NCBI GenBank assembly: GCA_964649615.1
Contig: CAZYPW010000002.1
Span: forward strand, 66,969 to 130,968
Direction of reading: 5' to 3'
Length of the DNA: 64,000 nt
From: an uncultured Gammaproteobacteria bacterium
Lineage (GTDB): Bacteria; Patescibacteriota; Microgenomatia; Daviesbacterales; UBA10151
Within the stretch, counting starts at the first letter, position 1. Each line of letters opens with the position of its first letter. The translations under genes were made by a program, and so were the position numbers. Shown in pieces: positions 17,014-64,000 of the stretch. The notes below the pieces were generated by a model. It was not told the DNA's origin. It was given only the letters and a program-made list of their open reading frames with translations, and did no database searches.

Positions 17014-17025
17014 AAATTTTTGTGG

Positions 17026-18222
17026 TTATTTCTTAGTAATTCTTTTTACTACTTCATCCAATCTTACCGCACGGGAGCCCTTAATCAAACACACATCACC
17101 TTTCCCTAAGTTCTTTAACAGTTTAGACACCATCTGGGAGTTTTGCAAGTTTACACTCAGCCTTTCTTCAAAGAATCCTAAATTCTTTAACTCATCTGCT
17201 ATAATTTGGGCCTCTCCTTGCCCTAAAAAAACTAAATCAACTTTTTCCTTAAATATTCTCCTTGCTACTTCCCTATGAAGCATCTCCGAATATTTACCTA
17301 ACTCTCTCATCTCACCTAAGACTAAAACTCTTCTTCTGGCTGGAATTTGTAAAAGAGCATCAATGGCCCCGTCAACAGCAGCAGGTGAAGAGTTATAGGT
17401 ATCATCCAAAATTACAGAACCATTCGGACCAGCTACTACTTGCAACCTATGATCGGAAGATTCAACAGATTCTAGCGCTACCTTTATTTTTGTTAAAGGA
17501 ATATTACAAATAATGCCTAAGGCTGCTGCTGCCAAAGCTGGATAAACTTGGTGTAGGCCTAATAATTGGTATTCAATTTTTACTCTTTCCACCCCTACAT
17601 TTAACTCAAAAATGGTTTTAAAATCCTCTATCCTAATATTTCCTGCCCAGACATTGCAGTTTTTAGAATCTGTGCCAAAAAATATCACCTCTCCTTTGCA
17701 AATTTGAGATAATTTCCGGGTATAAACATCATCATAGTTTAATATAGCCACTCCATCTGAAGGTAATTGTTCTACTAATTTACCTTTTTCCTGGGCAATC
17801 TGCTCCACATTTCCGAGATATTCACTATGGGCATAAAAAATTTTGGTGACTATTACAGTTTTTGGGCTAATAATAGAAAGGTAAAAATCCATTTCTCCTG
17901 GGTATTCAATTCCCATCTCAAATATGGCTTTTTTAACAGATGGTCGTAGTTTCAAAACAGTTTCAGGAATATTTAAAATAGGGTCTAAATTTGGGGAAGT
18001 TGTTATAGTTTTGAATTTTTGCGAGAGAATAGCTTGAGAGACTTGAATACAAGTGGTCTTTCCTACAGATCCGCTAACTCCTACAAATAATTCTCTTGGA
18101 TATAATTTGGCGTATTCTCTTGCTAAATGAATCCTTAAAAGATGAAAAGGTTTTTTAAATTTAGATATTTTAGTTTTATAAGGTGTACTTTGATTCCAAA
18201 TAGGATGTGCTTTAATATCCAT
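17026..18222 (-). CDS. murF: Mur ligase, probably UDP-MurNAc-tripeptide:D-Ala-D-Ala ligase MurF (short form, 398 aa)
   Basis: The P-loop GVSGSVGKTT, in the dcw position immediately upstream of mraY. Its N-terminal domain is shortened. Confidence 0.65.
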   Translation of the reverse strand: MDIKAHPIWNQSTPYKTKISKFKKPFHLLRIHLAREYAKLYPRELFVGVSGSVGKTTCIQVSQAILSQKFKTITTSPNLDPILNIPETVLKLRPSVKKAIFEMGIEYPGEMDFYLSIISPKTVIVTKIFYAHSEYLGNVEQIAQEKGKLVEQLPSDGVAILNYDDVYTRKLSQICKGEVIFFGTDSKNCNVWAGNIRIEDFKTIFELNVGVERVKIEYQLLGLHQVYPALAAAALGIICNIPLTKIKVALESVESSDHRLQVVAGPNGSVILDDTYNSSPAAVDGAIDALLQIPARRRVLVLGEMRELGKYSEMLHREVARRIFKEKVDLVFLGQGEAQIIADELKNLGFFEERLSVNLQNSQMVSKLLKNLGKGDVCLIKGSRAVRLDEVVKRITKK

Positions 18223-45037: not shown

Positions 45038-46561
45038 TTAATTTCTCTTAATATATGCCCTATATCCACCTTCTTTAATGGAAGATATACCCAACAGGTC
45101 CTCTGATAAAGGTATTCTATCTTCAGATAAAATTATAGTGTAAACAGGAAACCTTTTACTAATCTCGTCAGGATACAGCCACCCTAAACTGTTATCAGTA
45201 TAACTTTGATCAGGAACTCTTCCATATGCTTTAAATAAATATCTCCATCCCTCATAGTTATGGCATATTCCCCTTCCTTCAATAGCAAAACTTTTATCAC
45301 CTACCATACCCATTACTTTATTAATTAACTTTTCTTTAGGGCCTAAACTAAATTCATCTGATGAATTTAAGACTGTATTAATGCCCAAGAGAGAAACAAT
45401 TAATATTAAACCAAAGGCAATCCACTTCATTTTTTTGTTTAGTTCCCCTATCAAAATTGCTGGTACAAAAATAAAGAGAGCGAGAAAAACTAAAGTATAA
45501 TATTCATAAGAACCCCCAGGATAAATAAGATAAAAAAGGGCCGAGACAGTTAAAAATAGGGCTAAAAGTTTATTAGGAAATTTCCTACTATTTAAATTTT
45601 TTCCTATGAAATATAAAACTAATCCTAGAGAAATTATGGATAACCAAGAGGGAGAATATGTTCTTTGGGTATATTTATTAATTACTTCATAACCTGTTGA
45701 TAAAGATAAGGCTGAACAGCCAAAATTTACTTCATCTGCATTAGGAGCTCCAGGTTTTAAATGCCAAAATCGACCCATGCTATCAAATAACGTTCCAAAT
45801 TTTTCTGGTGGATTAAAACTAACCTGTAATTGATGGTTACTTTCCAAAAGTTTACTAAGAACTCTCAAATTACTGAAATTATGGTTCATATCAAAAATAA
45901 TTAGTGGCCAGTAAAAGATTAGAAAAGCAGCTGAGCATAAGATGATTAACTTAATATCCTTAAAGTGCTTATCCTTTATAAAGTACCAGACACCTATCAA
46001 AAGAAGTGGAAAGGGGGGTAGATGGGTTTCAAAGATAAGTCCTGCTAGTCCTGCAAATAAAATCCACCACCATTTATTTTTTTTTACTAATACTAAGGAT
46101 AAAAATAAAAGCACTGCTACTGAAGGCCCAAACATGGGGTTCCAGTATTTTTGATCAAAGAAAACAAACAAAGGTAAAGTTGCATATAATAAAGAAGAAA
46201 TAACTGCCACAGTCAAATTAAAAACTCTTTTTCCTGCCAAAAAAATAACTGCTGTAGTAATTACTCCTAAAAAGGCTGCAAAATAGGCAGTAATTAAAGG
46301 ATCTCCTCTTGATAAAGCCAAAAGGATAGCTGTTAAGTAGACTACATAGGGCCCAATATAAAATTCTAAAGCAGCTGCAACCAAACCAATCCAAATAGGA
46401 TGAGGGTTCAAAACTTGAGTCCAAGCATAAGTGGCTTGATATTCTTCATCTAAATTAAATACATATAAATCAGGCAAACGGTTAAACCTTAAAAAAGCAG
46501 AAATAATTATGATAATTATTAAAAATAGATAAACTCGATATTTTTTTATTAAAGTCCACAT
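45038..46561 (-). CDS. GT-C fold membrane glycosyltransferase, paralog A (507 aa)
   Basis: A DEE loop (FNLDEEYQATYAW). It is about 65% identical to the ORF at 49046..50584, including the C-terminal motif FAIEGRGICHNYEGWRYLFK. Confidence 0.55.
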   Translation of the reverse strand: MWTLIKKYRVYLFLIIIIIISAFLRFNRLPDLYVFNLDEEYQATYAWTQVLNPHPIWIGLVAAALEFYIGPYVVYLTAILLALSRGDPLITAYFAAFLGVITTAVIFLAGKRVFNLTVAVISSLLYATLPLFVFFDQKYWNPMFGPSVAVLLFLSLVLVKKNKWWWILFAGLAGLIFETHLPPFPLLLIGVWYFIKDKHFKDIKLIILCSAAFLIFYWPLIIFDMNHNFSNLRVLSKLLESNHQLQVSFNPPEKFGTLFDSMGRFWHLKPGAPNADEVNFGCSALSLSTGYEVINKYTQRTYSPSWLSIISLGLVLYFIGKNLNSRKFPNKLLALFLTVSALFYLIYPGGSYEYYTLVFLALFIFVPAILIGELNKKMKWIAFGLILIVSLLGINTVLNSSDEFSLGPKEKLINKVMGMVGDKSFAIEGRGICHNYEGWRYLFKAYGRVPDQSYTDNSLGWLYPDEISKRFPVYTIILSEDRIPLSEDLLGISSIKEGGYRAYIKRN

Positions 46562-49045: not shown

Positions 49046-50584
49046 TTATTCTTCCTTTCTTATATAGACTCTATATCCTCCAGCTTTAAAAGACTGTAAC
49101 GTTGATAAATCTTCATTCAAAGGTATTCTATCTTCTGAAAGAATAACTGTATACTCTACCTTTATTTTACTTATTTCACTGGGATATAACCATCCTAGGC
49201 TACTATCTGTATAGCTTTGAGCAGGTGTTCTTCCATATACCTTAAATAAATATCTCCAACCTTCATAGTTATGGCATATTCCCCTTCCTTCAATAGCAAA
49301 GCTATCACCTACCACACTCATTACTTTACTAATTAACTGCCTTTTAGGGCCTAAACTAAATTCATCAGAGGTTCTTAAAACAGTATTAATGCCTAAAAAA
49401 GAAATAATAAATATTAGAATTAGTGAAAACAGCTGCTGTCTTTTTTTAAGCCCACTAATTAATATTCCAGGTACAAATATAAATAACACCATAATAGAAA
49501 GAGTGTAGTATTCTGAAGAAGCCCCGGGATAAATTACAAATGAAAGAAGCGCCACTAATAGAAAAAGGGCCAATAATTTATACTCTTTATTTTTACTGCT
49601 TTTGCTTACCCAAAAGAAATAAATAAGTAAAAATAAAGTTAGTATAGATAAGAGGGATGGGGCATCTGTTCTACTAGAGTGAAGATCCATATTTTTAAAT
49701 TCTGATTTAATTGTTAGAGGGTTGCAGCTAAAATTTATTTCATCTGCATTTGGGTTTCCAGCTCTCAAGTACCAGAATCTTCCCAGGCTATCAAAAAGGG
49801 ATTTAAACTTCGTCTCTGGATCAAATGCAATCTTCGATTGGCTAAAACTACTTTTAATCCGGGCAAAAGCAGTTAAATTACTAAAATCATGGTTAAGATC
49901 AAAAACAATAAGCGGCCAATAAAAAAATAAAAATACTAAAACACAACTCAAAAATAATTTTAAATTCTTAAAATATTTATCTTTTAAAAAGAAAAATAAT
50001 CCTATTAGGAAAAGGGGGGCGGGTATTAGATGAGTCTCTAAAACCACTCCAAAAAGTGCTGCATATAAAATCCAAAACCAAGCATTTTTTTTAATTAAAA
50101 CAATTGTCAATAGTAAAAGAACTGTTATTAGATTGGAAAACATAGTATTCCAATATTTTTGATCATAAAAAACAAATAAGGGTAAGGTGGCATATAATAA
50201 TGAGGCTACAGCTCCTGTGGTTAGATTAAATATTTTCCAGCCTACAAAAAATATAACAGTTGTAGTAATCACACCCAAAAATGCAGCAAAGTAGGCAGTA
50301 ATCATTGGGTCACCTGAAGATAACCAAAGAAGGAATGCGCTAAAGTAGGTAAAATAAGGTCCTAGATAAAATTCTAAAAAAGAGGCGCTTACACCAATCC
50401 AGATAGGATGAGGGTCTAAAACTTGGGTCCAGGCATAAGTTGCTTGATACTCTTCATCAAAATTAAATACATAAATATTATTTAAATTATAAAACCGTAA
50501 GAAAGCCGAAAGCCCAACAATTACACTTATTAAAATATAAATTTTAAATTTTTTAAGTAATGTAAAAATACTCATTTTAATCAA
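49046..50584 (-). CDS. GT-C fold membrane glycosyltransferase, paralog B (512 aa)
   Basis: FNFDEEYQATYAWTQVLDPHPIWIG…, which is nearly the same as in paralog A. A shared 38-nt identical stretch lies at 49263-49300 and 45252-45289. Confidence 0.55.
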   Translation of the reverse strand: MIKMSIFTLLKKFKIYILISVIVGLSAFLRFYNLNNIYVFNFDEEYQATYAWTQVLDPHPIWIGVSASFLEFYLGPYFTYFSAFLLWLSSGDPMITAYFAAFLGVITTTVIFFVGWKIFNLTTGAVASLLYATLPLFVFYDQKYWNTMFSNLITVLLLLTIVLIKKNAWFWILYAALFGVVLETHLIPAPLFLIGLFFFLKDKYFKNLKLFLSCVLVFLFFYWPLIVFDLNHDFSNLTAFARIKSSFSQSKIAFDPETKFKSLFDSLGRFWYLRAGNPNADEINFSCNPLTIKSEFKNMDLHSSRTDAPSLLSILTLFLLIYFFWVSKSSKNKEYKLLALFLLVALLSFVIYPGASSEYYTLSIMVLFIFVPGILISGLKKRQQLFSLILIFIISFLGINTVLRTSDEFSLGPKRQLISKVMSVVGDSFAIEGRGICHNYEGWRYLFKVYGRTPAQSYTDSSLGWLYPSEISKIKVEYTVILSEDRIPLNEDLSTLQSFKAGGYRVYIRKEE

Positions 50585-51281
50585 AAAATCTATATCTAAA
50601 AATTGTCCAAACAGCTTTTAGTCCATCAAAAAAATTAATCTTCTTGCCCTCCTCGTAAGTTCTTGGTATAACCTTTATAGGAATCTCCAATATTTTGGCT
50701 CCTTTTTTTAAAAACTTGGCAGTTATTTCAGGCTCAAACTCAAACCCCCTGCTTTTTAGTTTAATTCCGTCAAGGCAGCTTTTTCTAAAAACTTTATAAC
50801 ATGTTTCCATATCAGTCAGGTTGGAATTAAAAAGCAAATTGGTAAGATTTGTTAAAATCTTATTAGCAATCAAATGGGAAGGCAAAATAGTTTTATTCTT
50901 ACCCCAAAACCTAAGAGGATAATCTATGAGCCTGCTTCCATATACTACTTTTGTACGGTTTTGCAGAATTGGTTTAAGTAAAATAGGGTAGTAACTGGGA
51001 TCATATTCTAAATCAGCATCTTGAATAAGGATGATATCCCCCGCTGCAATTTTTAATCCATCTCTTATAGCTGTGCCTTTTCCTAAATTATTTTCATGAA
51101 AAATTTTTTTTATACCCCTCTCATCTCTTATTTCTTTAGAAGTGGCGTCTGTTGAGCCATCATCAACAACAATAATTTCTTTTTTAATCAGGCCTGGTAA
51201 TTTAACAGCATAAACTCTTCTTAAAATTTCATTGATAGTTTTCTCCTCATTAAAGACTGGAATAATTATCGATAAAATCAT
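50577..51281 (-). CDS. GT2 polyprenyl-phosphate glycosyltransferase (DPM1/GtrB/CsbB-like)
   Basis: ILSIIIPVFNEE, VVDDGSTDAT and LIQDADLEY. Confidence 0.75.
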   Translation of the reverse strand: MILSIIIPVFNEEKTINEILRRVYAVKLPGLIKKEIIVVDDGSTDATSKEIRDERGIKKIFHENNLGKGTAIRDGLKIAAGDIILIQDADLEYDPSYYPILLKPILQNRTKVVYGSRLIDYPLRFWGKNKTILPSHLIANKILTNLTNLLFNSNLTDMETCYKVFRKSCLDGIKLKSRGFEFEPEITAKFLKKGAKILEIPIKVIPRTYEEGKKINFFDGLKAVWTIFRYRFFD

Positions 51282-51973
51282 TTGTTAATTTTTCTGGCAA
51301 TAACCAATATAGAAGTTCCCACTGGTGGCTCAAAAATATTTTCAAGCAATAAAAAAATGGGAGAGATTAGATTAAATATTTTAATTTTTCCTTCACTAAC
51401 TTGGGTTTCTTTAAAAAATTTACCTGCAATGAACCATCCGATACTTCCTAGAAAATTTAAGTTTCTAATTTTAACTATTTCAAAATTGCACTCTTTTAGT
51501 AATCTTTCCAATTGTCCCCTTTCGTAACGCCGATAATGACCAATAGATTGATCAATTAAGTTATAAAGAAATTGATGTGCAGGCACAAGTAAAATTAGAA
51601 TTCTATTAGTTGCTAATAATTTATGAATATTTTTAAGGGCTGCTTTATCATCCTTAATATGTTCTAAAACATTTATGCAAACTACAGTACTGAAATTTCT
51701 TTCCTTAAAAAAATACTTTCCACTTTCAACATCTCCAAACCCAATTTGGGCTTTACCTTGAACCCGTTTTTTAGCCTCTTTTATATAATCTTCATTTATA
51801 TCTATAGCTAATAAATGCCCATACTTTGCTAGAAAACTGGTAAAATTACCTATTCCGCAACCAATTTCCAAAATAGGAGGAGTTAAATAATTACTAAATT
51901 GCTTCTTGGTCCATCTGTTATACCAGGTGGCTTGGCTCATTGATTCTAAAGTTTTGCTGGATTGATCAATCAT
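51278..51973 (-). CDS. Class I SAM-dependent methyltransferase
   Basis: ILEIGCGIGNFTSFLAKYG, the glycine-rich motif I. Confidence 0.75.
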   Translation of the reverse strand: MIDQSSKTLESMSQATWYNRWTKKQFSNYLTPPILEIGCGIGNFTSFLAKYGHLLAIDINEDYIKEAKKRVQGKAQIGFGDVESGKYFFKERNFSTVVCINVLEHIKDDKAALKNIHKLLATNRILILLVPAHQFLYNLIDQSIGHYRRYERGQLERLLKECNFEIVKIRNLNFLGSIGWFIAGKFFKETQVSEGKIKIFNLISPIFLLLENIFEPPVGTSILVIARKINK

Positions 51974-52761
51974 AGAATTATTCTCTTTATTTTTCTCAAG
52001 GGGGTTAACATTTTAGCTGTGAGATATTTCAAACCAGAAATTTTTGTCCAGGGAGAGGCAATAAATTCAGGATTTTGATATAAAACTTCTGGAAATTTAA
52101 ATCCATCTTTCACTTGATTCCCTATTTCATACTTAAATTTATCATATTCTCTTTTTTTAGAAGATCTTTTTAAATGAGTTACATGCAAAAATGGAGCATC
52201 CAAAAAAATAATCTTTTCTCTTTCCTGAATTAATTTTCCTTTATTATCAAAAAAGCCCTCTTTTCCGTAAGGCCAATCTAAATGTAGGCCAGAAATACTC
52301 TTACTGAAGGCTTTTAAACTCAAATGCCCGGTTTTGCCTAAAATTTTATATCTGCCTGCTTTCTCATCCTGTAAATGATAAATATCGCCAACTGGAACCA
52401 CCATGGGTACAACTATGCCTTCAATTTTACTGCCAATTTTCTTAATTTCCTTTACCAGACTGTTAATAGAATCTTTCCACCAGATCTCATCTCCATCTAA
52501 AATTAGTATCCAGTCTGCCCTTGACTCTTCAAGCATCTTCTGGCGCATTTTAGTAAACTCAAGGGGGGTAACCTTTCCCACCTGTTTAAACTCAATCTTC
52601 TCTCCTTTAATCTTTTTTAACTCTTTTATAATATCTACAGTTCTGTCTTTAGATCCTGTATCATAAATCAATACTTTATCTACATAATCCACCACACTCA
52701 TGACTGCAAAATACAAAAAATTTTCTTCATTATTCACAATAGTATTAGCCCAAACTTTCAC
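51970..52761 (-). CDS. GT2-like glycosyltransferase
   Basis: LIYDTGSKDRT and ILILDGDE (DxD). Confidence 0.55.
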   Translation of the reverse strand: MKVWANTIVNNEENFLYFAVMSVVDYVDKVLIYDTGSKDRTVDIIKELKKIKGEKIEFKQVGKVTPLEFTKMRQKMLEESRADWILILDGDEIWWKDSINSLVKEIKKIGSKIEGIVVPMVVPVGDIYHLQDEKAGRYKILGKTGHLSLKAFSKSISGLHLDWPYGKEGFFDNKGKLIQEREKIIFLDAPFLHVTHLKRSSKKREYDKFKYEIGNQVKDGFKFPEVLYQNPEFIASPWTKISGLKYLTAKMLTPLRKIKRIIL

Positions 52762-54023
52762 TTTGATTTCCTTAATTTAAATATTAACCAAATTAGAGGA
52801 TAGAGAAAATTAAAAGTCGTACCAGCTAATACTGTTAAAGATGCACCAATAACTCCATAACTTTGTATCATCAGATAACCTAAACTTCCGATTAATAATA
52901 AATGCCCAATTGATACCCATATAAAAACATCTGGCCTGCCAAAATAAAAAATAACACTATGGTGCACTGGTAAAGAGATTAGGAAAACAAGCATTGCTAG
53001 GAATAAAAATATAAATGGCATAATTACCTCCTGGTAGTTTGAACCTAAAAGTATTGGAATAAGATATATTAAGATAGGAATTGTTAAAATGCCCAATAAA
53101 CATAGGCTCAAAACAAACAGTTGGAATTTTTTAAAATAAACTAACATATCTTTACTGCTTTGAAATGAGGCAAATTTTGGTGCTGCCACTAGCCCCAAAG
53201 CAGAAACCAGTTGCGGCATAACTTGAACCAGTTGAGTCGCAGCTCCATAAATTCCTACCTCCCTGCTAGAAAGTAGCGCCGCGTTTAAATAAATATCTAA
53301 TCGGGCGGAAAATGCAGCTATAGCGGTGAAGACAGCAACAGGAATATTATACTTAAATAATTCTTTAGACAAACTAAATTCATCCTTGCTTGCTAAAATT
53401 TTCCTGGAGGGAAGGATAAAAAGAGTTACAAAAAAACCAAAAAATGGCATTAATATATATACTAATAGGCTGTTTTCAACATTAAGCATAAGAAAATACG
53501 CTAGTATAAGTATCAAGATTAATCTTAAAGAGTTAGTAAAAATATTCATCGCACTCCAAAGGAAATATTTCTGGTATGCCTGTAAAGAGGAAGTTGCAAA
53601 GCTAAAAAGTAAAGCTCCTCCTATACCAAAGCAGATTAATCTTAACGGTAAAATTAACTCCGCCTTATGAAAAACTTCAGTTGCTAAAAATGGAGCTAAA
53701 AAGAAAATAATCAAAGAGGATACAAACCAAGCCATCAATTTTATTTCCAGGCTTAGTTTTAAAAATTGGTATGCTTTTATGCTATTTACTGCCAAATTTG
53801 AAGATACAAAACGAATTAATCCGGTATTTGTCCCTAAATCTACTATATCTGCAATTAAAACTAGAGTTGTCAGGGCAATTGTGAGTAATCCAAAATCAGA
53901 GGGACCTAGCAGTCTTGCTAAGATTACATAGAATAAGGCTCCTAAAACCCCATTAATAAGCGTACCAAAAACTGTAATTTGAGATTGTTTAAAAGTGGCT
54001 GTTCTAATAATAGATCTGAGCAT
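52758..54023 (-). CDS. wzx: Wzx-type polysaccharide flippase (MOP superfamily)
   Basis: About 12 TM segments, with the N-terminus FGTLINGVLGALFYVILARLLGPSDFGLL typical of the Polysacc_synt family. Confidence 0.65.
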   Translation of the reverse strand: MLRSIIRTATFKQSQITVFGTLINGVLGALFYVILARLLGPSDFGLLTIALTTLVLIADIVDLGTNTGLIRFVSSNLAVNSIKAYQFLKLSLEIKLMAWFVSSLIIFFLAPFLATEVFHKAELILPLRLICFGIGGALLFSFATSSLQAYQKYFLWSAMNIFTNSLRLILILILAYFLMLNVENSLLVYILMPFFGFFVTLFILPSRKILASKDEFSLSKELFKYNIPVAVFTAIAAFSARLDIYLNAALLSSREVGIYGAATQLVQVMPQLVSALGLVAAPKFASFQSSKDMLVYFKKFQLFVLSLCLLGILTIPILIYLIPILLGSNYQEVIMPFIFLFLAMLVFLISLPVHHSVIFYFGRPDVFIWVSIGHLLLIGSLGYLMIQSYGVIGASLTVLAGTTFNFLYPLIWLIFKLRKSK

Positions 54024-54030
54024 ATAGCCA

Positions 54031-56715
54031 TTATATAGTTAAATTTTTAGATTTGCTGTATCTTATTAAAAGTAATATTAATATAAGAACTGTCAGGGAA
54101 GAAATTATCAATCCAAAGTTAACATATTTCTGGGCCTCAAATTCCACAATATATTGTCCATCTTTATCAATTTTATATCCATTCAATAAACTATATACTG
54201 GCAGGGAAGGCTGACCATTCATCTTCCATAGAGAATCATAGTTTTGAGAAAAAACCAAAAATGATTCTCCTGCTAAACCCTCAATAGTTACTATATATTT
54301 AGTAGGATCTATCTTCTGATAAGTTATCTTTGGATTATTTGTATTATTAATATTTACATTAGCAAAATCCAAAACTCTATCCTGTAAGCTCTTTGCTTTA
54401 TCCTGATAATTGAGCCATTCGTTTTTATCTATAGTTACTAATGCATTGACTACATTAATTGGTCCTGTAGAACTTATTTGTAAATCTTCTCCATCTTTTG
54501 GCAACTCCCCAACTTCAAACCATCTAATATTAGTCTTAGCTTCTACCTTAGTTGTTATTTCCCCAATCAATTGATCATCCTGATAAAATTTTAAATCTCC
54601 ACTTCTTGAACTCTCCATTACTCTTACCAAAAGTATGTCATCTTTTTTCACTTTTAACTTTTCATTTTTCACTTTTAACTTTAAATTTCCCTCTCCAACT
54701 GCCCAGCCACCGCCTAAATCAAAATCTTGATTATCAATCTGGTATTTGTTAACTAAAAAATCCCTCCATCTACCTAAATCAGCTGACTCCCTTTTCCACC
54801 AGCCGCTTTGATTAGGTTCAAAATCCAGTTGGTTAGCAGGAAAAATTAAATCAGAAACTTTTATAAAACTGGCTGCCAAATCCACTTCAGTTTTATTATT
54901 TAAAATAATTTTGGCAGTGGGTAATTCATCAATTCTTTTTCCTAGCCCTGGGGATTCTTCTGCAAAAATTAGGGCATTTTTTGATAATTGTAAATTTGCA
55001 CTTTTAGTTGCTTCCTTATAAATACTGTCAGATCCAATTACCCACCATATATTAGAGGGAGCAAAAAATCTATCTTGATGTTTAGTAGTTTTTAGAACAG
55101 GTATTTTCAGAGAATCTACTTTTGAAAGCCAGGGTAATTTGGAGAGCTGATCCAAAAAAAGATAATAATATCTAATATTATCTGGGTGCAAATTATCACG
55201 TCTTTGGTTCAGATATGGATAAACTATATATCCTATTCCTGCTACATCAAAAATTTCCCCCATATATGGAGCTTCTCTTAAGTAGTTAAGGGTTTCATAA
55301 CTTCCTGTTATTCCTACTGCAAATGGTCTCTTTTGAGCATATCTTGATGCTTCGAGTAATGGATGGTTATTACTTACATGTCCAAGAGGCGCCTTAGTGG
55401 GAATCCAAAAAACTCTTGAGTAATTATGGTCATTTTTAAGATATTCACTTAACTCCAAATATTCAAGAATAAATAATGGCTGGGAAAGTAATCCAGTCAT
55501 TTGACCTAAAAAAGCAGGCCTTATTAACCATACAAAATATATCAAAATTAAATATGGGATTATCTTAAAAATATAGCTTTTAAATTTACTTTTTCTTAAA
55601 CTAATTTCCTGAATAGTTATAGCTATCAGAACACTGTAAGCTAAACATATATAAAAGTAGAACTTTGTGGGATCCCTAAAAAGGGAGAATCCAGGGATAT
55701 GCGTAAATAACCAAGAATAAATTTGCCCAAAAGGATTCTGTGATCCCTTAGATAAAAAGACACCTAAAACTGCAACAATCAACCAAAAACCAACAACTTT
55801 ATCTTTCCTCCGCAAAATTGGCGCAAGAAAAACTAAGATTGGAATAAAAATAAAATCCCATCCTAGATTAGATATTTGTCCAAAAATGTTTTTATACCAA
55901 TGGGGTTGTTGTAGCAATAGTGCATGGCCAACTGAAGAAAAACTTAAGAAATCAACCTGAGAAATTCTTTCATAAGTTTGTGGCAATTGGGGAGTCTTTA
56001 TTAAAATTGAAGGCAATATCCAATATGCATGAAATGAAATTAGTACAACTGCAAGAAACATCATACCTAAAAAAGATTGTTTAATTAACTCTAATCTTTT
56101 ACCTATTTTTCTAAAAATTTCAAAAATGAAGCTTAAAAATAATATGGGTATTAAAAGATAAATAAATCTAATATCTAAAATTGATATTAGTAGAATTGAA
56201 GAAGTAAAATATAATTTATATCTGAAACTGTAAACATCCATCATTTTCAAAAAGAGATAAAAAACTAACGGTGAAATGGCATAAACTAAAGCTAAAGAAA
56301 TCTGTCCTCCATCAAAAAGTAAAATAAAATAGCTATTTGCTAGATAAAAAAAGATTCCTAAATATTTTCCAAAACCTTTAATATTAAAGAACCCAAGCAG
56401 TTTTGATGAAGAAAAAAATCCTATTAAAAATACCAGTCCACCCATTAATTTTGTTTGCATGGATGGTGGAATTGATAAAGCTGAAAGAATACTAAATAAA
56501 GAGTGAAGTGGTTGAGCCCAAAGAGTTATGCCAGTGTACTCACCTAAACCATCAGCTACATTTGTTTCTCTAAAGATCCAGGGAATTATCTGTTCTGATA
56601 CAGGAACATCATGCGGTAGGTGATAATCATTAGCTACTCTTACACCCGGTATCCAAAATATCCAAAAGGTAGAAATAAATAGCAGTAAAATTAAAATTGT
56701 AAATTTTTTGTCCAT
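54031..56715 (-). CDS. Giant membrane protein, paralog C (894 aa). It has a polytopic N-terminal domain, a large extracytoplasmic domain and a C-terminal TM anchor. Putative YfhO/GT-C-like glycosyltransferase.
   Basis: Its architecture and its conserved C-terminal module (…NGYKIDKDGQYIVEFEAQKYV…+TM) are shared with the ORFs at 56888..60325 and 60679..64000. Confidence 0.45.
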   Translation of the reverse strand: MDKKFTILILLLFISTFWIFWIPGVRVANDYHLPHDVPVSEQIIPWIFRETNVADGLGEYTGITLWAQPLHSLFSILSALSIPPSMQTKLMGGLVFLIGFFSSSKLLGFFNIKGFGKYLGIFFYLANSYFILLFDGGQISLALVYAISPLVFYLFLKMMDVYSFRYKLYFTSSILLISILDIRFIYLLIPILFLSFIFEIFRKIGKRLELIKQSFLGMMFLAVVLISFHAYWILPSILIKTPQLPQTYERISQVDFLSFSSVGHALLLQQPHWYKNIFGQISNLGWDFIFIPILVFLAPILRRKDKVVGFWLIVAVLGVFLSKGSQNPFGQIYSWLFTHIPGFSLFRDPTKFYFYICLAYSVLIAITIQEISLRKSKFKSYIFKIIPYLILIYFVWLIRPAFLGQMTGLLSQPLFILEYLELSEYLKNDHNYSRVFWIPTKAPLGHVSNNHPLLEASRYAQKRPFAVGITGSYETLNYLREAPYMGEIFDVAGIGYIVYPYLNQRRDNLHPDNIRYYYLFLDQLSKLPWLSKVDSLKIPVLKTTKHQDRFFAPSNIWWVIGSDSIYKEATKSANLQLSKNALIFAEESPGLGKRIDELPTAKIILNNKTEVDLAASFIKVSDLIFPANQLDFEPNQSGWWKRESADLGRWRDFLVNKYQIDNQDFDLGGGWAVGEGNLKLKVKNEKLKVKKDDILLVRVMESSRSGDLKFYQDDQLIGEITTKVEAKTNIRWFEVGELPKDGEDLQISSTGPINVVNALVTIDKNEWLNYQDKAKSLQDRVLDFANVNINNTNNPKITYQKIDPTKYIVTIEGLAGESFLVFSQNYDSLWKMNGQPSLPVYSLLNGYKIDKDGQYIVEFEAQKYVNFGLIISSLTVLILILLLIRYSKSKNLTI

Positions 56716-56717
56716 AT

Positions 56718-56888
56718 CTATTTACTCAATCTTAAAATATAGAAAACTGTTCCTAGAATAATTAAAATGAAAATATATTCAGAAAAAATTAGTGCAAAAC
56801 CAAAATGATTGGTAATTAGTATTAATCCTAAAAGTAACAATTCCAAAACTGAAAGGATAAATATATTTTGTATTAACTGATTATTCAT
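56718..56888 (-). CDS. Unannotated 56-aa two-TM peptide (MNNQLIQNIFILSVLELLLLGLILITNHFGFALIFSEYIFILIILGTVFYILRLSK)
   Basis: A hand translation. Its ATG overlaps the TGA of the upstream giant gene (TGATG), and its stop lies 2 nt before the start of the next giant gene. It is absent from the ORF track because it falls below the apparent ~60-aa reporting cutoff. Confidence 0.4.
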   Translation of the reverse strand: MNNQLIQNIFILSVLELLLLGLILITNHFGFALIFSEYIFILIILGTVFYILRLSK

Positions 56889-59800
56889 CAATGCTTTCTG
56901 GATTTGAAATCTTTTATAAATATAACTATCAATAAAATTATAAAACTAATTCCGGCAATGATGAAACCTTTATATACACTTTTTTGCGGCTCAAATTCAA
57001 GATCAAATGTATAGTCTCCTGCTTTATCAACAAACCAGGCATTTCCATAAAGATTTGCCAAGATGTGCTTATCCGGAGTAACTACTGTCCCGTCTGATGA
57101 TTTTAGTTTAAGTTTCCATCCCGGATGATAAGTCTCATTAAAAAGAAAAAAAGCAGGTTTAATTAACTTGAAATTACCTTTGTATGAGCTGGAAGTTTGT
57201 TTACTGAAATCTGGTAATGTTTCATCTGATCTAGAATTTATATTATTTTTATTTTCACTCATTAAGATAAGCGAATTATTTAAAAATCTTTCTATCTTCA
57301 GGTTTCTGATAGACATTGCCGAAATATCGGCCAGTGCAAATCTAATTGTTGCTTTCTGACTCATTGAATTTAAAGGTGGCAATGTAAAGTTAAAGCTTTG
57401 CCAATCATTTGAACTGTTCTGGGGAATAAATTGGTTTATGCGAAATTCTTTTCTTCCTGACAAATCTAAAGTATCTGTATCTTGCTCTAATTGAAGGTAA
57501 AAACCACTACCCTTAAGCATCTTAGTTTCAAAACTTATTTGATAAATATCACCTCCTGAAACATTCCCTAAATTTGCATCTAAGAATGTCTCCTTTTGTC
57601 CGCTGGTAGATAAATTAATAATAGATTCGTCCTGTTGTTTAACATCGCCAGATGCATTTAATGCATTTGGCAAAGATACCAGGTTTAAACCGGAAGGAAT
57701 AAAGTAGCTGATTTCGTACTCTCCCGGATTAAGTTCCACTTCTCCAAAAGCTATAAAATTAGCCTCTTTTTTACCTGCTAACAAAAACTGTTGATGATTA
57801 ATTTGAAAATTAAGCTCCGTCAGGTTGTCTGAATACTTATTTTGGATTTGAGAATTAGTCATCAAAATTTGATAATGCGCGCGCTCGGGTATCTTAAATT
57901 TAAAAATTTGTCTAAGCAGGCTTGATGACTTCAGATCACTAACAGAGTAGCGGGAGATCAGATCGTTGCTTACCAGACTTTCCCTTAAGCTGGTAGCTAT
58001 ATCATCTATTTCTTTAGTGCTTAAAAAAGTTTTAATTTGCTCAAGTATTGATAAGTGTTGTTTGAAAATAGATGAAATAGTAGATTCATTAATAAAAATA
58101 AATATTCGTGATGTATGAATATCTTTTCTAAATATTTCTGCTACTTTTTTCCCATAAGCTTTTATTAAATCTTTATTCATTTCTTTTTGATTGTTGTTAA
58201 ATGCATTAATAATTTCAATCATTGTTTGGTTCGCTGAAATAATTTTACCTACCATTTCTTCAGCCTGAATTTCTCCGTATTGGCTTAATATACTGCGGCT
58301 TTTTTCCAGTTGGCTTATGGGAGAATTTTCATTACCGGGATCTAAAGAGGCGCTGTTTGTAGACTCATCAGATAAAAGAAAAGTTCTTGGTAGAATTATT
58401 GTCTGGTTGCTGTTACTTAAAGTCGAATCATCTAAAAGATCACCAATTGGCGATATAAAATTATTTTCCTTACCTAATAACCAAGGCCATATAAAACTGC
58501 TCTTTCCCGGAAGGACAACTCCAATATTATCGGTAATAATTATTTTATGTTTATAATACTCATCTTTAACCCGATAAATCCTAAGGTCACCAAATTCAAC
58601 TCTTTTATCTAAAAAAGTCAGCTTATTAAGTATTCCTTCGGTTTCAGCCGGATCATATAAATTACCCCCTCTCCACTCAATATCCTTATGGAGAATTATA
58701 AATTTTATATTAAATGCTTGAAGTAATTCTAAAATTTTATTTGGGTTCCCTGTATATGGAGCATGGAAGATAAGGGATAGTGCTGACAAACTGGCAGAAA
58801 CCATCGGTAAGTCTAAACCTCTGGCAATAGAAGGCAGAGAGGTGAATATAGCTGCAGATGGCTCTACCCCATTGTAACCTTTTGGCCAATTATATTTAAC
58901 ATCCTCCGATCTAGGCAGCGGCAGATGAAGAATTCTTCCTTCCGACATACCCGCAGTTACTTTAATATCTTGTTTAATCCACTCATTAGCTTCAGTGTAG
59001 CTTTTGGGAACTTCCACAAATGCCGGCCTGTCTAAACTGCCAAATAGTTTTCCTGTAAACATAGGGTGGAAAAATGCTAAATGAAGACCAATAAAAACTA
59101 CCAATAATAGGTACGTTTTATACCTGCCAATATATTTACTAGAGGTAATGAATAAAAAATGTAGCCCAAGGGCAAACAAGATGGCAAAAACTAAAGGAAG
59201 TAGAATACCTAATTTCTCAAAAGGGTTTCTGATCACTCCCAACGGGAAAAAATGAGAGAAGCCGTAGATATAGGGAAAGTTAAAAGGAGCCGCTGCACCT
59301 TTTGCCAGAAAAACTACAATTAGAAAAAGCAGACTCCAAAAAGCATATGCTTTTTCTTTAAATCCTCTTAAAAAGCCGATAAATACTATCACTGCAAACA
59401 ACCAGGATACTGCAACAAGGAATATATTTTGATAAATGCTCCCCCAGTCAGCATGCCAATATAGGTAGAAAGGATTAATTAGACGGAGGGTAAAAGGGAG
59501 AACGGTTTGTATGCTTAAAGCAACCAGGTTAGTTAAACTATCATCTATGGTATGTTGGGTAGCAAATAAAGCAGGACTGATGCTGAAGGTGGGAATCAGC
59601 CACCAGCTATTGGTTAAAAGCCAGAACAGTAGTCCCATTAAAAAAGCAAAGAATATTTTAAGGGTAGTCTCCTTACCTTTCCAGGGCACTAATACTTCCA
59701 ATAAGGTTATTGAAAAAAGTAATGTCCAAACAGCTACAATAAAGGCTATCGTTCCATAAACATAAACTGCTAAAAAATTGGCTAGAAGAAAAAGCAGTAA

Positions 59801-60325
59801 AAATTTAGGATCACGTTTCCGTATCCACCAAAGCCAAGTCAATACCAAAAAGGGCAAAAATGCCACAAAAACCATAGAGTTATGAATAAATCTATGCCAG
59901 ATTTGAATCATCATGTATGGGTTAAAGACATAAAATATTCCGGCTGCGTAAGCTAACAGGATTTTATCTTTCCCAAAGATATACAAAGCCAGAAGATACA
60001 TGCCATAACCAATCAGAAATAACAGAATAAAAAACAGAAAAGCCTGGATAAAAACAGGGCTTGCCCCTAAAGCTTGAGGGATAGATAAAAACAACATCAG
60101 GGGGACTGAAGTTAATCCCTGGGCTACAGGAATACCCGGAGCCAGAGAATCCCACCAGATATTTTTGGCAATATTCACTGCAACCTGGGGACTGTATGTT
60201 GGCAGACCCGTATCCCCACCTCCATACATATATCCAAACCTAAACCAGCAAAATATTAATCCTGCAGAAAGGAGTAAAAAGATAAGAGGTGGAAGTAATG
60301 CTACTTTCTTCATCAAAAGTCTCAA
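56888..60325 (-). CDS. Giant membrane protein, paralog B (1145 aa). It has a polytopic N-terminal domain, an ~750-aa extracytoplasmic domain and a C-terminal TM.
   Basis: An ORF with at least 12 N-terminal hydrophobic segments and the C-terminal module LANLYGNAWFVDKAGDYTFDLEFEPQKSV+TM. Residues ~88-263 are encoded by a tract 100% identical to the one in paralog A. Confidence 0.5.
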   Translation of the reverse strand: MRLLMKKVALLPPLIFLLLSAGLIFCWFRFGYMYGGGDTGLPTYSPQVAVNIAKNIWWDSLAPGIPVAQGLTSVPLMLFLSIPQALGASPVFIQAFLFFILLFLIGYGMYLLALYIFGKDKILLAYAAGIFYVFNPYMMIQIWHRFIHNSMVFVAFLPFLVLTWLWWIRKRDPKFLLLFLLANFLAVYVYGTIAFIVAVWTLLFSITLLEVLVPWKGKETTLKIFFAFLMGLLFWLLTNSWWLIPTFSISPALFATQHTIDDSLTNLVALSIQTVLPFTLRLINPFYLYWHADWGSIYQNIFLVAVSWLFAVIVFIGFLRGFKEKAYAFWSLLFLIVVFLAKGAAAPFNFPYIYGFSHFFPLGVIRNPFEKLGILLPLVFAILFALGLHFLFITSSKYIGRYKTYLLLVVFIGLHLAFFHPMFTGKLFGSLDRPAFVEVPKSYTEANEWIKQDIKVTAGMSEGRILHLPLPRSEDVKYNWPKGYNGVEPSAAIFTSLPSIARGLDLPMVSASLSALSLIFHAPYTGNPNKILELLQAFNIKFIILHKDIEWRGGNLYDPAETEGILNKLTFLDKRVEFGDLRIYRVKDEYYKHKIIITDNIGVVLPGKSSFIWPWLLGKENNFISPIGDLLDDSTLSNSNQTIILPRTFLLSDESTNSASLDPGNENSPISQLEKSRSILSQYGEIQAEEMVGKIISANQTMIEIINAFNNNQKEMNKDLIKAYGKKVAEIFRKDIHTSRIFIFINESTISSIFKQHLSILEQIKTFLSTKEIDDIATSLRESLVSNDLISRYSVSDLKSSSLLRQIFKFKIPERAHYQILMTNSQIQNKYSDNLTELNFQINHQQFLLAGKKEANFIAFGEVELNPGEYEISYFIPSGLNLVSLPNALNASGDVKQQDESIINLSTSGQKETFLDANLGNVSGGDIYQISFETKMLKGSGFYLQLEQDTDTLDLSGRKEFRINQFIPQNSSNDWQSFNFTLPPLNSMSQKATIRFALADISAMSIRNLKIERFLNNSLILMSENKNNINSRSDETLPDFSKQTSSSYKGNFKLIKPAFFLFNETYHPGWKLKLKSSDGTVVTPDKHILANLYGNAWFVDKAGDYTFDLEFEPQKSVYKGFIIAGISFIILLIVIFIKDFKSRKH
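59535..60062. repeat. A 528-bp tract 100% identical to 63473-64000, lying inside giant paralog B
   Basis: A base-by-base comparison shows a sharp boundary at 59534/59535 against 63472/63473, where identity drops from 100% to ~75%. Confidence 0.9.
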
Positions 60326-60673
60326 TTAAAATTTTTCAATATAACCTTTTTTGATAATTTTAGGAAGGTATAAAACAATTGTTATCACCAGTAAACTAAA
60401 TCCAAAATCACCGATAACTTTAGAAAAATTTGGCAGATTTAGAAGATTAAATATCATCATTAACACCAAACAAAAACCAGTCATAAAAAGAATAAAGCGT
60501 CTAAAATTCGGTTTAAAAACCATTATGGTTGTAAGTATGGAGAGTAATAAAGGTTGCGGTAATCTTTCCCAAGAGTCAAAATTAAATCCATATTCAAGAA
60601 TATAAAATATCCCCAGTAGAAAAATTGTAGTTAAAAACGGCTTTAATATTAAGTAGCTGCGGAGTGATTTCAT
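60326..60673 (-). CDS. Small 3-4 TM membrane protein (115 aa), possibly a GtrA-like lipid-linked sugar flippase
   Basis: Hydrophobic profile. Its stop directly abuts the start of the giant gene at 60323-60325. Confidence 0.4.
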   Translation of the reverse strand: MKSLRSYLILKPFLTTIFLLGIFYILEYGFNFDSWERLPQPLLLSILTTIMVFKPNFRRFILFMTGFCLVLMMIFNLLNLPNFSKVIGDFGFSLLVITIVLYLPKIIKKGYIEKF

Positions 60674-60678
60674 AAAAT

Positions 60679-63600
60679 TTAGGAAACTTTACGGAAATAT
60701 AATCTTATTACCAGTATTAAGGCTACTATAACCCATCCTGAAATAGCAAACAATATGGCTATTTTAATGAATTTTTGCGGACTGTAGTTTAGGGTGAAGT
60801 CATAATCCCCTGTTTTTTCTATCACCCAGGCATTCGCATATGAATTGGCAAGCAAATGTTCTCGGGGCCGATAAATTTCTTTCCCGTTATATAACGATAA
60901 CTCCCAACCCGGATCAAAGGATTCCTTAAAAAATATCCATGTTGGTCTGATAATTCTTACCTTACCCAGATATTGGCTAGAACTTAATTTTTGGGCTTCC
61001 AGCACCATGCCGGAAGGGGAAGCTGATTGAACCAACGCTAAATCGGCTCTCAAGAAAATATCATTATTTAATATCCTTACTACATTTATATTTCTAATAA
61101 GAAACCTGGAAGATTGATTATAAGTTTTACTTACTTTTTCATCTGCGCATTTCTTTTTATCGCCTAATACTGTCAGACAATCATCCCAAGGCTCCGCCTG
61201 AATTCTTAGCTTGGCCTTTTGGGTATTTGATCTTAAAACTACATTCCCTTCAAAACGGCGCCATTGGTTGCTGGCGGAACTGCCTGGAAAATAGTAGTTG
61301 TTGTAACCTAAACCTAACTCATCGGGATCGCTACTCAACTGATCCGTATCCTGACTGACTTGTACCCTGATCCCTATTCCTGATAGCAATTGAAAATCAA
61401 AGCTTATCAGATAACTGTCTCCTCCGTAGGCGGGATCAATATTACTCTCAATATATGAAGAGTCTTGCTTTCCGGAAATTATTTCCACAATACCTAAATC
61501 AGAAACACGAACATCACCAACCTTATTCATTAAAGATATGCTGGAAACAAGATTTATGGATGGTAATCCCAAAATGTTCATTGAGTGCTCACCGGATTCT
61601 ATCTGAACTTCCCCGAAAGACATTAATTTTTGCTCACCCTCTTGAGTCATCCTCATTCGCTGATCATCAACCTGAAAATCCAACTCCGACAAATTATTTG
61701 GATATATATTCTTCGTTTCGGGCCTATTCATTAAAACCTCATAGTTTAATCTTAGGGGGATACTAAAAAGATACAGCTGATTATACTGCTGGTTTGATAT
61801 ATCTTCATTTTTTAACTGATGCTCCGGGATTAATCCCTTCGCAACTAATAATTTGGTAATTAGTATAGTTAAATTATCTATTGTTTTTTTCTCATTTTGA
61901 TCCGATATTCCGCCTTTAATGTAATTTAACAGGCCCAAATGCCTTAAAAACACATCTAAGGTATCAGCTTGATAGCCGTTTATAACAACAGCATCAGGTA
62001 CGAATACCTCATCAAAAATCTCTATGAGAATTTTTCTATACCTTTCAATTTGTAAATCACCCAACTTCTTACCTTTCTCCTTACTGATAATCCCCGATTC
62101 CTCCATCCTGCGAATTTTATACATTTCCACCAGTCTTTTTTCAGCATAGATTATCTTTCTCTGCTGTATCTCAAACTGGCTTTTTGCAATCAAACTTAAA
62201 GATTCTTTGATCTCCAGCAGGAAATAAAACGGCGATGTTGGCAGTATCCGGATATGATTAAAATTCTCGAGATTCCCATGAAATTCAGGGACCTCAAAAT
62301 TCCTGGATAATTCGCCTCTTTCAGAGGATATAATAATTTTGTCAATCTTGTTTATTAGACTTTTGTCTTGTTCTTCGGATAAAGCACTCACCATCTCTGC
62401 CGACGGCGTACTGACTATCCAGGACCAGAAGAGATTCTTCCTTGCAGGTTTAAGCAATTCGACATTATCGGAAATTATTATCTTGGGGCTAAAATAATCC
62501 GTTTTCAATTTGTAGATGGTTAAGTTTTCAAATATTACTGCCTTTTCCAAAAATTCCCATTTGTTAAGAAAGTTTTCTGTTTCGTAGGGACTATATAACT
62601 CCCCGTTCAACCAGTTAATATCTTTATGCAAGATAATATATTTAATATTAAAATCCTTGAGCATCTTCAGTATAACCTCCTGATTTGAAGCATATGGAGT
62701 ATGGAATATTAAAGATAGTCCTGATAGAGCATCACTCACTCCCGGAACAGCTAAACCTCTGGCAATTGAGGGTAGGGAGGTAAATATAGCCGCAGATGGC
62801 TCTACCCCATTGTAGCCATACTGCCAGTTGTAGCTGACTGCTTCTGATTTAGGTAAAGGCAGATGAAGAATCCTCCCCTCCCAACTATTGGTAGTATTGC
62901 CAAGATCTCTCTTAATCCAATCATTGGCTTGGGTATAACTTTTAGGTACCTCAACAAAATTCTGCTTGTCCAAAGTACCAAACAACTTCCCGGCAAACAT
63001 AGGCCAAAAAAAGCTCATATAAAAACAGACAATAATTCCCAGTACACAGTATGCCCTAAACCTACCAATATATTTATCGAGCTGCATTAATACCCACCGC
63101 AATCCCAAGGCAAACAAGATGGCAAAAACCAAAGGCAGTAAAATACCCAACTTTTCAAAAGGATTCCTGATGACTCCCAATGGAAAAAAATTAGAGAAGC
63201 CAAATATATATGGAAAAGAAAAAGGGGGTGCTGCCCCTTTGCCTAAAAATATCACTATCAGAAAAAGTAAACTCCAAAAAGCATATGCTTTTTTTTTAAG
63301 GCCTTTGATAAAGCCGATAAATACAAAAAGTAGCGGTATCCAGGAGATTAGGTTAAATAATAAAGTGTGATAGATATTCCCAAAGTCAGCATGCCAGTAT
63401 AGGTAGAAGGGGTTAATTAAACGTAAGGTGTAGGGTAAGATTGTTTGGGCAGAAAGAGATATTAATGTAGACAAACTATCATCTATGGTATGTTGGGTAG
63501 CAAATAAAGCAGGACTGATGCTGAAGGTGGGAATCAGCCACCAGCTATTGGTTAAAAGCCAGAACAGTAGTCCCATTAAAAAAGCAAAGAATATTTTAAG

Positions 63601-64000
63601 GGTAGTCTCCTTACCTTTCCAGGGCACTAATACTTCCAATAAGGTTATTGAAAAAAGTAATGTCCAAACAGCTACAATAAAGGCTATCGTTCCATAAACA
63701 TAAACTGCTAAAAAATTGGCTAGAAGAAAAAGCAGTAAAAATTTAGGATCACGTTTCCGTATCCACCAAAGCCAAGTCAATACCAAAAAGGGCAAAAATG
63801 CCACAAAAACCATAGAGTTATGAATAAATCTATGCCAGATTTGAATCATCATGTATGGGTTAAAGACATAAAATATTCCGGCTGCGTAAGCTAACAGGAT
63901 TTTATCTTTCCCAAAGATATACAAAGCCAGAAGATACATGCCATAACCAATCAGAAATAACAGAATAAAAAACAGAAAAGCCTGGATAAAAACAGGGCTT
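60679..64000 (-). CDS. Giant membrane protein, paralog A (>=1107 aa). Its N-terminus lies beyond the window edge.
   Basis: The frame stays open to position 64000 and keeps matching paralog B (…LIGYGMYLLALYIFG…), so the real start is outside the window. The C-terminal module is LANSYANAWVIEKTGDYDFTLNYSPQKF+TM. Confidence 0.5.
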   Translation of the reverse strand, partial: SPVFIQAFLFFILLFLIGYGMYLLALYIFGKDKILLAYAAGIFYVFNPYMMIQIWHRFIHNSMVFVAFLPFLVLTWLWWIRKRDPKFLLLFLLANFLAVYVYGTIAFIVAVWTLLFSITLLEVLVPWKGKETTLKIFFAFLMGLLFWLLTNSWWLIPTFSISPALFATQHTIDDSLSTLISLSAQTILPYTLRLINPFYLYWHADFGNIYHTLLFNLISWIPLLFVFIGFIKGLKKKAYAFWSLLFLIVIFLGKGAAPPFSFPYIFGFSNFFPLGVIRNPFEKLGILLPLVFAILFALGLRWVLMQLDKYIGRFRAYCVLGIIVCFYMSFFWPMFAGKLFGTLDKQNFVEVPKSYTQANDWIKRDLGNTTNSWEGRILHLPLPKSEAVSYNWQYGYNGVEPSAAIFTSLPSIARGLAVPGVSDALSGLSLIFHTPYASNQEVILKMLKDFNIKYIILHKDINWLNGELYSPYETENFLNKWEFLEKAVIFENLTIYKLKTDYFSPKIIISDNVELLKPARKNLFWSWIVSTPSAEMVSALSEEQDKSLINKIDKIIISSERGELSRNFEVPEFHGNLENFNHIRILPTSPFYFLLEIKESLSLIAKSQFEIQQRKIIYAEKRLVEMYKIRRMEESGIISKEKGKKLGDLQIERYRKILIEIFDEVFVPDAVVINGYQADTLDVFLRHLGLLNYIKGGISDQNEKKTIDNLTILITKLLVAKGLIPEHQLKNEDISNQQYNQLYLFSIPLRLNYEVLMNRPETKNIYPNNLSELDFQVDDQRMRMTQEGEQKLMSFGEVQIESGEHSMNILGLPSINLVSSISLMNKVGDVRVSDLGIVEIISGKQDSSYIESNIDPAYGGDSYLISFDFQLLSGIGIRVQVSQDTDQLSSDPDELGLGYNNYYFPGSSASNQWRRFEGNVVLRSNTQKAKLRIQAEPWDDCLTVLGDKKKCADEKVSKTYNQSSRFLIRNINVVRILNNDIFLRADLALVQSASPSGMVLEAQKLSSSQYLGKVRIIRPTWIFFKESFDPGWELSLYNGKEIYRPREHLLANSYANAWVIEKTGDYDFTLNYSPQKFIKIAILFAISGWVIVALILVIRLYFRKVS
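63473..64000. repeat. Second copy of the identical tract, inside giant paralog A and truncated by the window end
   Basis: As above. Confidence 0.9.

Follow-up and report, generated by a model that had tools for sequence, protein, structure and literature searches.

Gene conversion between bacterial paralogs has been described for tufA and tufB of Salmonella and Escherichia coli and for the bab and sab outer-membrane proteins of Helicobacter pylori. In these systems a non-reciprocal exchange homogenizes a segment of the paralogs within one genome, and its traces are internal identical patches, synonymous sites that have been homogenized, and a grouping of the paralogs by genome and not by ortholog. 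We found the same signature in a 64,000-nt window (the whole stretch of DNA that was analyzed, to which all window coordinates refer) from a Daviesbacteria-like genome of the Candidate Phyla Radiation (CPR). Two adjacent paralogs in this window, genes A and B, sit in a glycan-biosynthesis cluster and share an identical tract within the part that encodes their N-terminal membrane module. Our preferred reading, to which we assign a probability of about 0.9, is recurrent gene conversion, causing concerted evolution of this module in the tandem paralogs. A first-pass annotation of the DNA had already suggested gene conversion with concerted evolution, and this suggestion is borne out by the internal position of the patch, by the homogenized synonymous sites, and by independent tracts in orthologous loci.

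Positions 59535-60062 of gene A and 63473-64000 of gene B agree at 528 of 528 positions when the offset is fixed at 3938 nt, in line with the base-for-base identity that the first-pass annotation had claimed. Identity is first broken at 59534/63472, where T stands against C. Counted along gene A, the run without mismatches to gene B lasts to nt 779 and is followed by mismatches at nt 780, 781, 785, 786, 787, 789, and onward. The adjoining stretch, 59461-59534, had been put at ~75 to 80% identity to its gene B counterpart. We measured only 59%, so that the boundary, which had been called abrupt, is even more abrupt than described. Beyond this stretch the identity is 70% over the next 300 nt and 67% over the next 1000 nt, and below about position 58500 the identity of A and B at the fixed offset falls to random (~25 to 30%). 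With 32% divergence of the surrounding sequence, a clean run of 527 nt would arise anywhere in the homologous module with a probability of ~10^-86, which excludes a chance origin. No other long exact repeat turned up when the whole window was scanned for repeats.

The window ends inside gene B, and the far boundary of the tract was located with the two full-length proteins, P0001 (gene A) and P0002 (gene B), both of which are on record from a single NCBI contig (137,768 bp). Over their first 51 to 52 residues the proteins differ by 11 substitutions and one indel. The last N-terminal difference is N51 of gene A versus D52 of gene B, after which the proteins are identical to residue 260 of gene A. 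Since the first base of codon 51 (position 60163) must differ, the far boundary is placed at 60162, and the tract would total 628 bp, from the second base of gene A codon 51 to codon 260. The identity had been reported as being cut off only by the window edge. It should continue past position 64000 to about 64100 and end within both genes, so that the tract is internal to both, with diverged homology on both sides. In the predicted model it takes in the last part of the first outer loop and roughly transmembrane helices (TM) 2 to 8; the span of TM3 to TM7 given earlier is about right for the part that is visible in the window, whereas the whole tract covers residues 52 to 260.

Orthologous loci were compared next. 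A protein search for the family yielded mostly metagenome-assembled genomes (MAGs) of Daviesbacteria and other Microgenomates/Patescibacteria, and in the protein collection searched no relative of the window genome was closer than ~50% amino acid identity. The comparison covered four loci syntenic with the window: L006 (GCA_964415615.1), L007 (GCA_041643115.1), L008 (GCA_030689965.1), and L004 (Daviesbacteria STD1_94). The gene order is a GT2 glycosyltransferase gene, B, a small open reading frame (ORF), A, and C, with the two outer genes differing in L004. The longest exact match between A and B is 628 bp in the window (gene A nt 152-779), 680 bp in L007 (nt 49-728), 1674 bp in L006 (nt 28-1701), and 1581 bp in L004 (nt 57-1637). 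In L008 it is 71 bp only, with 75 to 92% identity across the whole N-terminal module. At the protein level only, the pair P0011/P0015 has 551 identical residues in common, and long identical runs are lacking in P0004/P0006. Altogether, a perfect tract is present in five of the seven genome pairs of the clade and absent from two, and its boundaries vary from genome to genome. Because the tract region is only 70 to 77% identical in nucleotides between genomes, and the neighboring genes only 51 to 69% identical in amino acids, the tracts represent independent events in deeply separated lineages. A comparison of orthologs for mosaic patterns had been recommended by the first-pass annotation, and independent exact tracts with different boundaries are what it brought to light.

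The two halves of the genes give different pictures of their relationships. Across genomes, the amino acid identity of the C-terminal halves is 0.31 to 0.68 for B-B, 0.32 to 0.48 for A-A, and 0.27 to 0.32 for A-B comparisons. That A-A and B-B exceed A-B indicates that the duplication is older than the splits between the lineages. Inside the tract, A equals B in the window, L007, L006, and L004, while in the C-terminal halves the grouping follows ortholog type; the middle region (residues 261 to 560) holds little orthology signal. As judged from identity matrices, this is the phylogenetic incongruence expected from conversion. No identical runs were found in eleven other same-contig pairs of the family, which are more distant and have 43 to 50% amino acid identity in the N-terminal half, and this indicates that the homogenization is clade specific and not family-wide.

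Two simpler explanations of the identity have to be considered, one technical and one selective. The two copies might not exist in one genome if the assembler had joined different strains or had doubled or collapsed sequence; the first-pass annotation had itself raised an assembly collapse. The window comes from a metagenome-assembled contig, the exact 628-bp repeat exceeds typical short-read k-mers, and single-nucleotide polymorphisms (SNPs) could be hidden by bubble popping. However, the independent Logan assemblies, which we take to be de Bruijn contigs with k = 31, do not agree with an artefact. A contig of this kind that enters a repeat from unique sequence is expected to stop k-1 = 30 nt inside it. 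Contig L001 matches window positions 51150-59564 exactly and contig L002 (SRR12113430) matches 60133-63502 exactly, and the ends (59564 = 59535 + 29, 63502 = 63473 + 29, 60133 = 60162 - 29) place the breaks at all three junctions (dA, dB, and uA) 30 nt inside the tract. Since L002 connects the 3' part of gene B, the small ORF, and the 5' end of gene A, the sole linear path is uB-R-dB-uA-R-dA (u, upstream; d, downstream; R, tract), and both tract copies are present in one DNA molecule. At the L006 tract, four Logan contigs from four Sequence Read Archive (SRA) runs likewise end exactly 30 nt inside. The Logan contigs were made by a different assembler and branch exactly at the tract boundaries, as a true graph branch would have them do, so that the present assembly cannot have created the repeat. 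Moreover, the same architecture with exact tracts occurs in three other MAGs under separate accessions, and sequence of 70% identity is never made identical by an assembler. We consider an artefact highly unlikely. Extreme purifying selection, on the protein or on the nucleotides, could instead keep the copies identical without recombination, and the region does encode the GT-C membrane core, a conserved part in which the family alignment shows numerous invariant residues. Synonymous sites, however, are identical as well: none of the 209 tract codons differs between A and B, in contrast with 88 of 201 same-amino-acid codons (44%) that differ synonymously in the 3' flank. Moreover, orthologs differ from the window tract at 23 to 30% of nucleotides, including 66 to 75 synonymous codon differences, and the boundaries are not the same in different genomes. 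The low identity of the tract region between genomes excludes selective conservation, and we give this explanation next to no credence. An equal conservation of the tract in orthologs had been named beforehand as the sign of selection; the orthologs proved to be diverged, which favors conversion.

It has also been considered that the tract might serve variation. The first-pass annotation mentioned a variation mechanism, and a selected system can be imagined in which recombination in the common module swaps or fuses C-terminal ectodomains, or deletes or amplifies the 3.9-kb unit, and thereby varies the surface glycan. Such a system would fit the exact tracts in five of seven genome pairs, the several C-terminal types per array position, which evolve faster than the neighboring genes (30 to 50% versus 51 to 69% amino acid identity), and the direct repeats of 0.6 to 1.7 kb, which are good substrates for unequal exchange. 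Nevertheless, no hybrid or deletion variant was seen, though k-mer assemblies cannot show such variants; no recombinase, invertase, or retroelement is implicated; and two of the seven pairs are without tracts, as in sporadic neutral conversion. We found no evidence for programmed variation and regard a selected system as improbable. A diversity-generating retroelement was also considered and was ruled out by the perfect identity, as the template and variable repeats of such elements differ at adenines. The template repeats of diversity-generating retroelements are ~100 to 150 bp, far shorter than the tract. A related idea is that the homogenized module is kept identical as part of a modular system, with a common catalytic core, interchangeable acceptor-binding ectodomains, and the repeats as a recombination hotspot. 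We hold this idea to be doubtful, but if it is true, the perfect direct repeats of 0.6 to 1.7 kb would shuffle, fuse, delete, or amplify ectodomain cassettes, and this would mean population-level variation of the surface glycan in episymbiotic CPR bacteria.

We return to recurrent gene conversion, for which we suggest the following course. Genes B and A would be old tandem duplicates, each encoding an AftD-like GT-C enzyme with an N-terminal catalytic membrane module of ~560 residues, a variable extracytoplasmic C-terminal half made of a helical region and beta-sandwiches similar to carbohydrate-binding modules (CBMs), and, at the end, a membrane anchor. In one of the genes, 628 bp would recently have been overwritten with the sequence of the other by non-reciprocal homologous recombination within the chromosome, between direct repeats 3.9 kb apart and presumably RecA dependent. 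Codons 52 to 260 would thus have been stripped of differences, and the first 51 codons and everything downstream would have been left ~30% diverged. The process has been repeated independently in relatives, such that the membrane module evolves in concert within each genome and the C-terminal halves keep their ortholog identity.

Several points weigh against gene conversion or blur its details. Flanks of ~70% identity are a poor substrate to start a RecA-mediated exchange; in each lineage, the initial event must either have happened rarely or have started from short patches of identity. The tract does not tell the donor gene from the recipient, being about equally distant from the A and B copies of every relative. 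The G+C content at third codon positions (GC3), which is 0.37 in the tract, 0.37 to 0.39 in gene B overall, and 0.32 in the flanks of gene A, hints weakly at gene B as the donor, but the difference is not significant. The evidence for two copies consists of assembly contigs; assemblers pop small bubbles, which could hide a few real SNPs between A and B, and the identity of 100% might really be ~98 to 99% or more. For copy B, the final 100 bp of identity was deduced from the P0002 protein together with the Logan contig end, and the divergence of the 5' flank of gene B was likewise taken from the protein and the contig end.

The GC3 values have a further feature. In all five genomes the N-terminal module (nt 151-780) has a GC3 of 0.32 to 0.38, compared with 0.26 ± 0.025 for 23 other genes of the window. 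It is raised whether or not this part lies inside a tract, and it is not raised in nt 781-1680 of the L006 tract; gene B of the window has ~0.37 to 0.39 along its whole visible length. The raised GC3 might reflect GC-biased conversion, codon constraints, or a foreign origin. As for the homogeneity of A and B, it may be either neutral or selected, for example, through a common lipid-linked donor or a partner such as the small ORF.

The nature of the encoded proteins was approached by sequence and structure. Neither gene A nor gene B has a Pfam match even at E ≤ 10, an NCBIfam match, or a sequence match in the Protein Data Bank (PDB) by phmmer or by a profile of 27 sequences. Of the 27 aligned homologs, 16 match Pfam GT-C_AftD (PF11847; best E = 4.4e-11) and 8 match DUF5667. 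The link of genes A and B to PF11847 is thus transitive only, through homologous sequences, and not a direct match to the hidden Markov model. It was only the structure-based search that identified the fold of the gene A product. The AlphaFold2 model of this protein (mean predicted local distance difference test score, 78.9; predicted TM-score, 0.71) has a helical membrane domain to about residue 420, followed by regions of mixed alpha/beta and of helical structure; beta-sandwich domains begin near residue 800, and an anchor helix closes the chain. The top three Foldseek matches are the AftD structures 6W98, 6WBX, and 6WBY, with E values of 5.5e-16 (6W98) to 9e-15 and query TM-scores of 0.41 to 0.46, followed by the oligosaccharyltransferases STT3 and PglB; the C terminus matches CBM-like domains. 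The model thus displays the N-terminal multi-helix membrane domain and the AftD-like extracytoplasmic domains that are taken to define the GT-C fold here. We suggest on the basis of this predicted structure that genes A and B encode distant AftD-like GT-C membrane glycosyltransferases, which gives a more precise meaning to the "surface machinery" of the first-pass annotation. A motif following TM1, Y30-G-G-G-D34, is invariant in the 27 aligned homologs, and its D34 is a candidate for the acidic residue that GT-C enzymes carry in the catalytic motif of the first extracytoplasmic loop.

The C-terminal ectodomains are the variable part of these proteins. Several ectodomain types are found at each position of the array, the B-type proteins having 1177 or 1191 to 1196 residues and the A-type proteins 1000 to 1026 or 1141 to 1169. 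The C-terminal halves of A and B are 30 to 50% identical in amino acids between genomes, below the value for the neighboring genes, which suggests that the ectodomains evolve rapidly or are replaced as cassettes.

A small membrane ORF lies between B and A, and an ORF of 113 to 115 residues occupies the equivalent position in L006 (13582-13926), L007 (9647-9988), L008 (9673-10017), and L004 (13531-13875). The window protein is 51 to 56% identical to its L006, L007, and L008 counterparts and ends in a conserved motif, GDFGFSLL...YLP.IIKKG. Its sole family match is a weak one to part of the GT-C family Dpy19 (E = 0.0027). This protein could be an accessory glycosyltransferase subunit.

The features of the locus are compiled in Table 1. 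According to ORF calling, all genes at the A/B locus are on the minus strand. Gene A is followed on its 3' side by a 56-residue ORF, gene C, a Polysacc_synt flippase gene, GT2 glycosyltransferase genes, and a methyltransferase gene.

Table 1. Genes and tract features at the A/B locus, in window coordinates
Feature	Coordinates	Strand	Remarks
Gene A	56888..60313	-	ATG start; 1141 aa; P0001; ORF, exact protein recorded on the NCBI contig
Small membrane ORF between B and A	60326..60673	-	115 aa
Gene B	60679..64000 (window edge)	-	1191 aa; P0002; start expected at ~64254; translation runs off the window
Gene C	54031..56715	-	894 aa; third, distant paralog, outside the conversion
Conversion tract, A copy	59535..60162	-	628 bp; gene A nt 152-779, residues 52-260
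Conversion tract, B copy	63473..64000 visible (528 bp), expected to ~64100	-	exact identity with the A copy
3' tract flank in gene A, diverged homolog	58500..59534	-	pairs with ~62438-63472 of gene B; 55-80% identical
5' tract flank in gene A, codons 1-51	60163..60313	-	diverged; gene B counterpart beyond the window

Gene C is 27% identical to gene A over 415 amino acids (E = 3e-15), and the window repeat scan found no repeat that it has in common with gene A or B. Residues 293 to 374 of its product give a sub-threshold NCBIfam match to NF053599 (MmpA-family trehalose lipid delivery protein; E = 1.1e-9, 37 bits versus a cutoff of 210), which probably represents only a shared membrane-domain motif. 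The ORF of 55 to 56 residues that precedes gene C (56718-56888, minus strand) overlaps the stop of gene A; it was called in the Logan contig and also in L006, where the equivalent is at 16980-17147. Another pair of GT-C-like (PMT_2) paralogs, 45038-46561 and 49046-50584 (minus strand), lies ~4.0 kb apart, and its nucleotide identity is 68 to 83% in patches, without an exact tract. This pair is an internal control, showing that conversion does not touch every paralog pair here.

Regarding the origin of the Logan data, contigs L001 to L003 are from runs SRR12113430 and SRR12113384, and L010 to L013 are from SRR12113431, SRR4343428, SRR4343430, and SRR12113433. The organism of the window and that of L006 both occur in runs SRR121133xx-SRR121134xx, possibly from one study, and their A/B modules are only ~70% identical in nucleotides. 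If the runs share a habitat, it is home to two diverged members of the clade.

As an example of gene conversion that is still going on in an uncultivated CPR/Patescibacteria bacterium with a small genome, the locus is clean and has been validated independently; in this clade homologous recombination is evidently active enough to keep a module of 0.6 to 1.7 kb identical in most of the genomes that were compared. The locus further establishes that three genes for AftD-like GT-C proteins, with a common core and fast-evolving ectodomains, form a conserved array, which bears on how surface glycans are built and varied. In practice, exact internal repeats of this kind break short-read assemblies and can mislead the orthology and phylogeny of the AftD-like family. 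Full-text literature searches gave no earlier description of gene conversion in the CPR or in AftD/GT-C paralogs. The process itself is well known in bacteria; what is new is the CPR host, the array of AftD-like GT-C genes, the recurrence across diverged genomes, and the restriction to one module.

In comparison with mycobacterial AftD (6W98), the proteins of genes A and B have in common the large GT-C architecture, with an N-terminal multi-helix membrane domain and extracytoplasmic domains that resemble carbohydrate-binding ones. They differ in coming from another phylum, with ~10% identity in the structural alignment, and in having an anchor helix at the C terminus as well as a helical insert that resembles DUF5667. 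The mycobacterial embC-embA-embB genes form an array of tandem GT-C arabinosyltransferases, and the present locus is similar in that three paralogs stand in tandem within a glycan-biosynthesis cluster. Unlike the tuf and bab/sab systems, the paralogs here lie side by side as direct repeats, the genome belongs to the CPR/Patescibacteria, homogenization is confined to the N-terminal membrane module, the C-terminal half being ~25 to 30% identical in amino acids, and independent exact tracts are found in several deeply diverged genomes.

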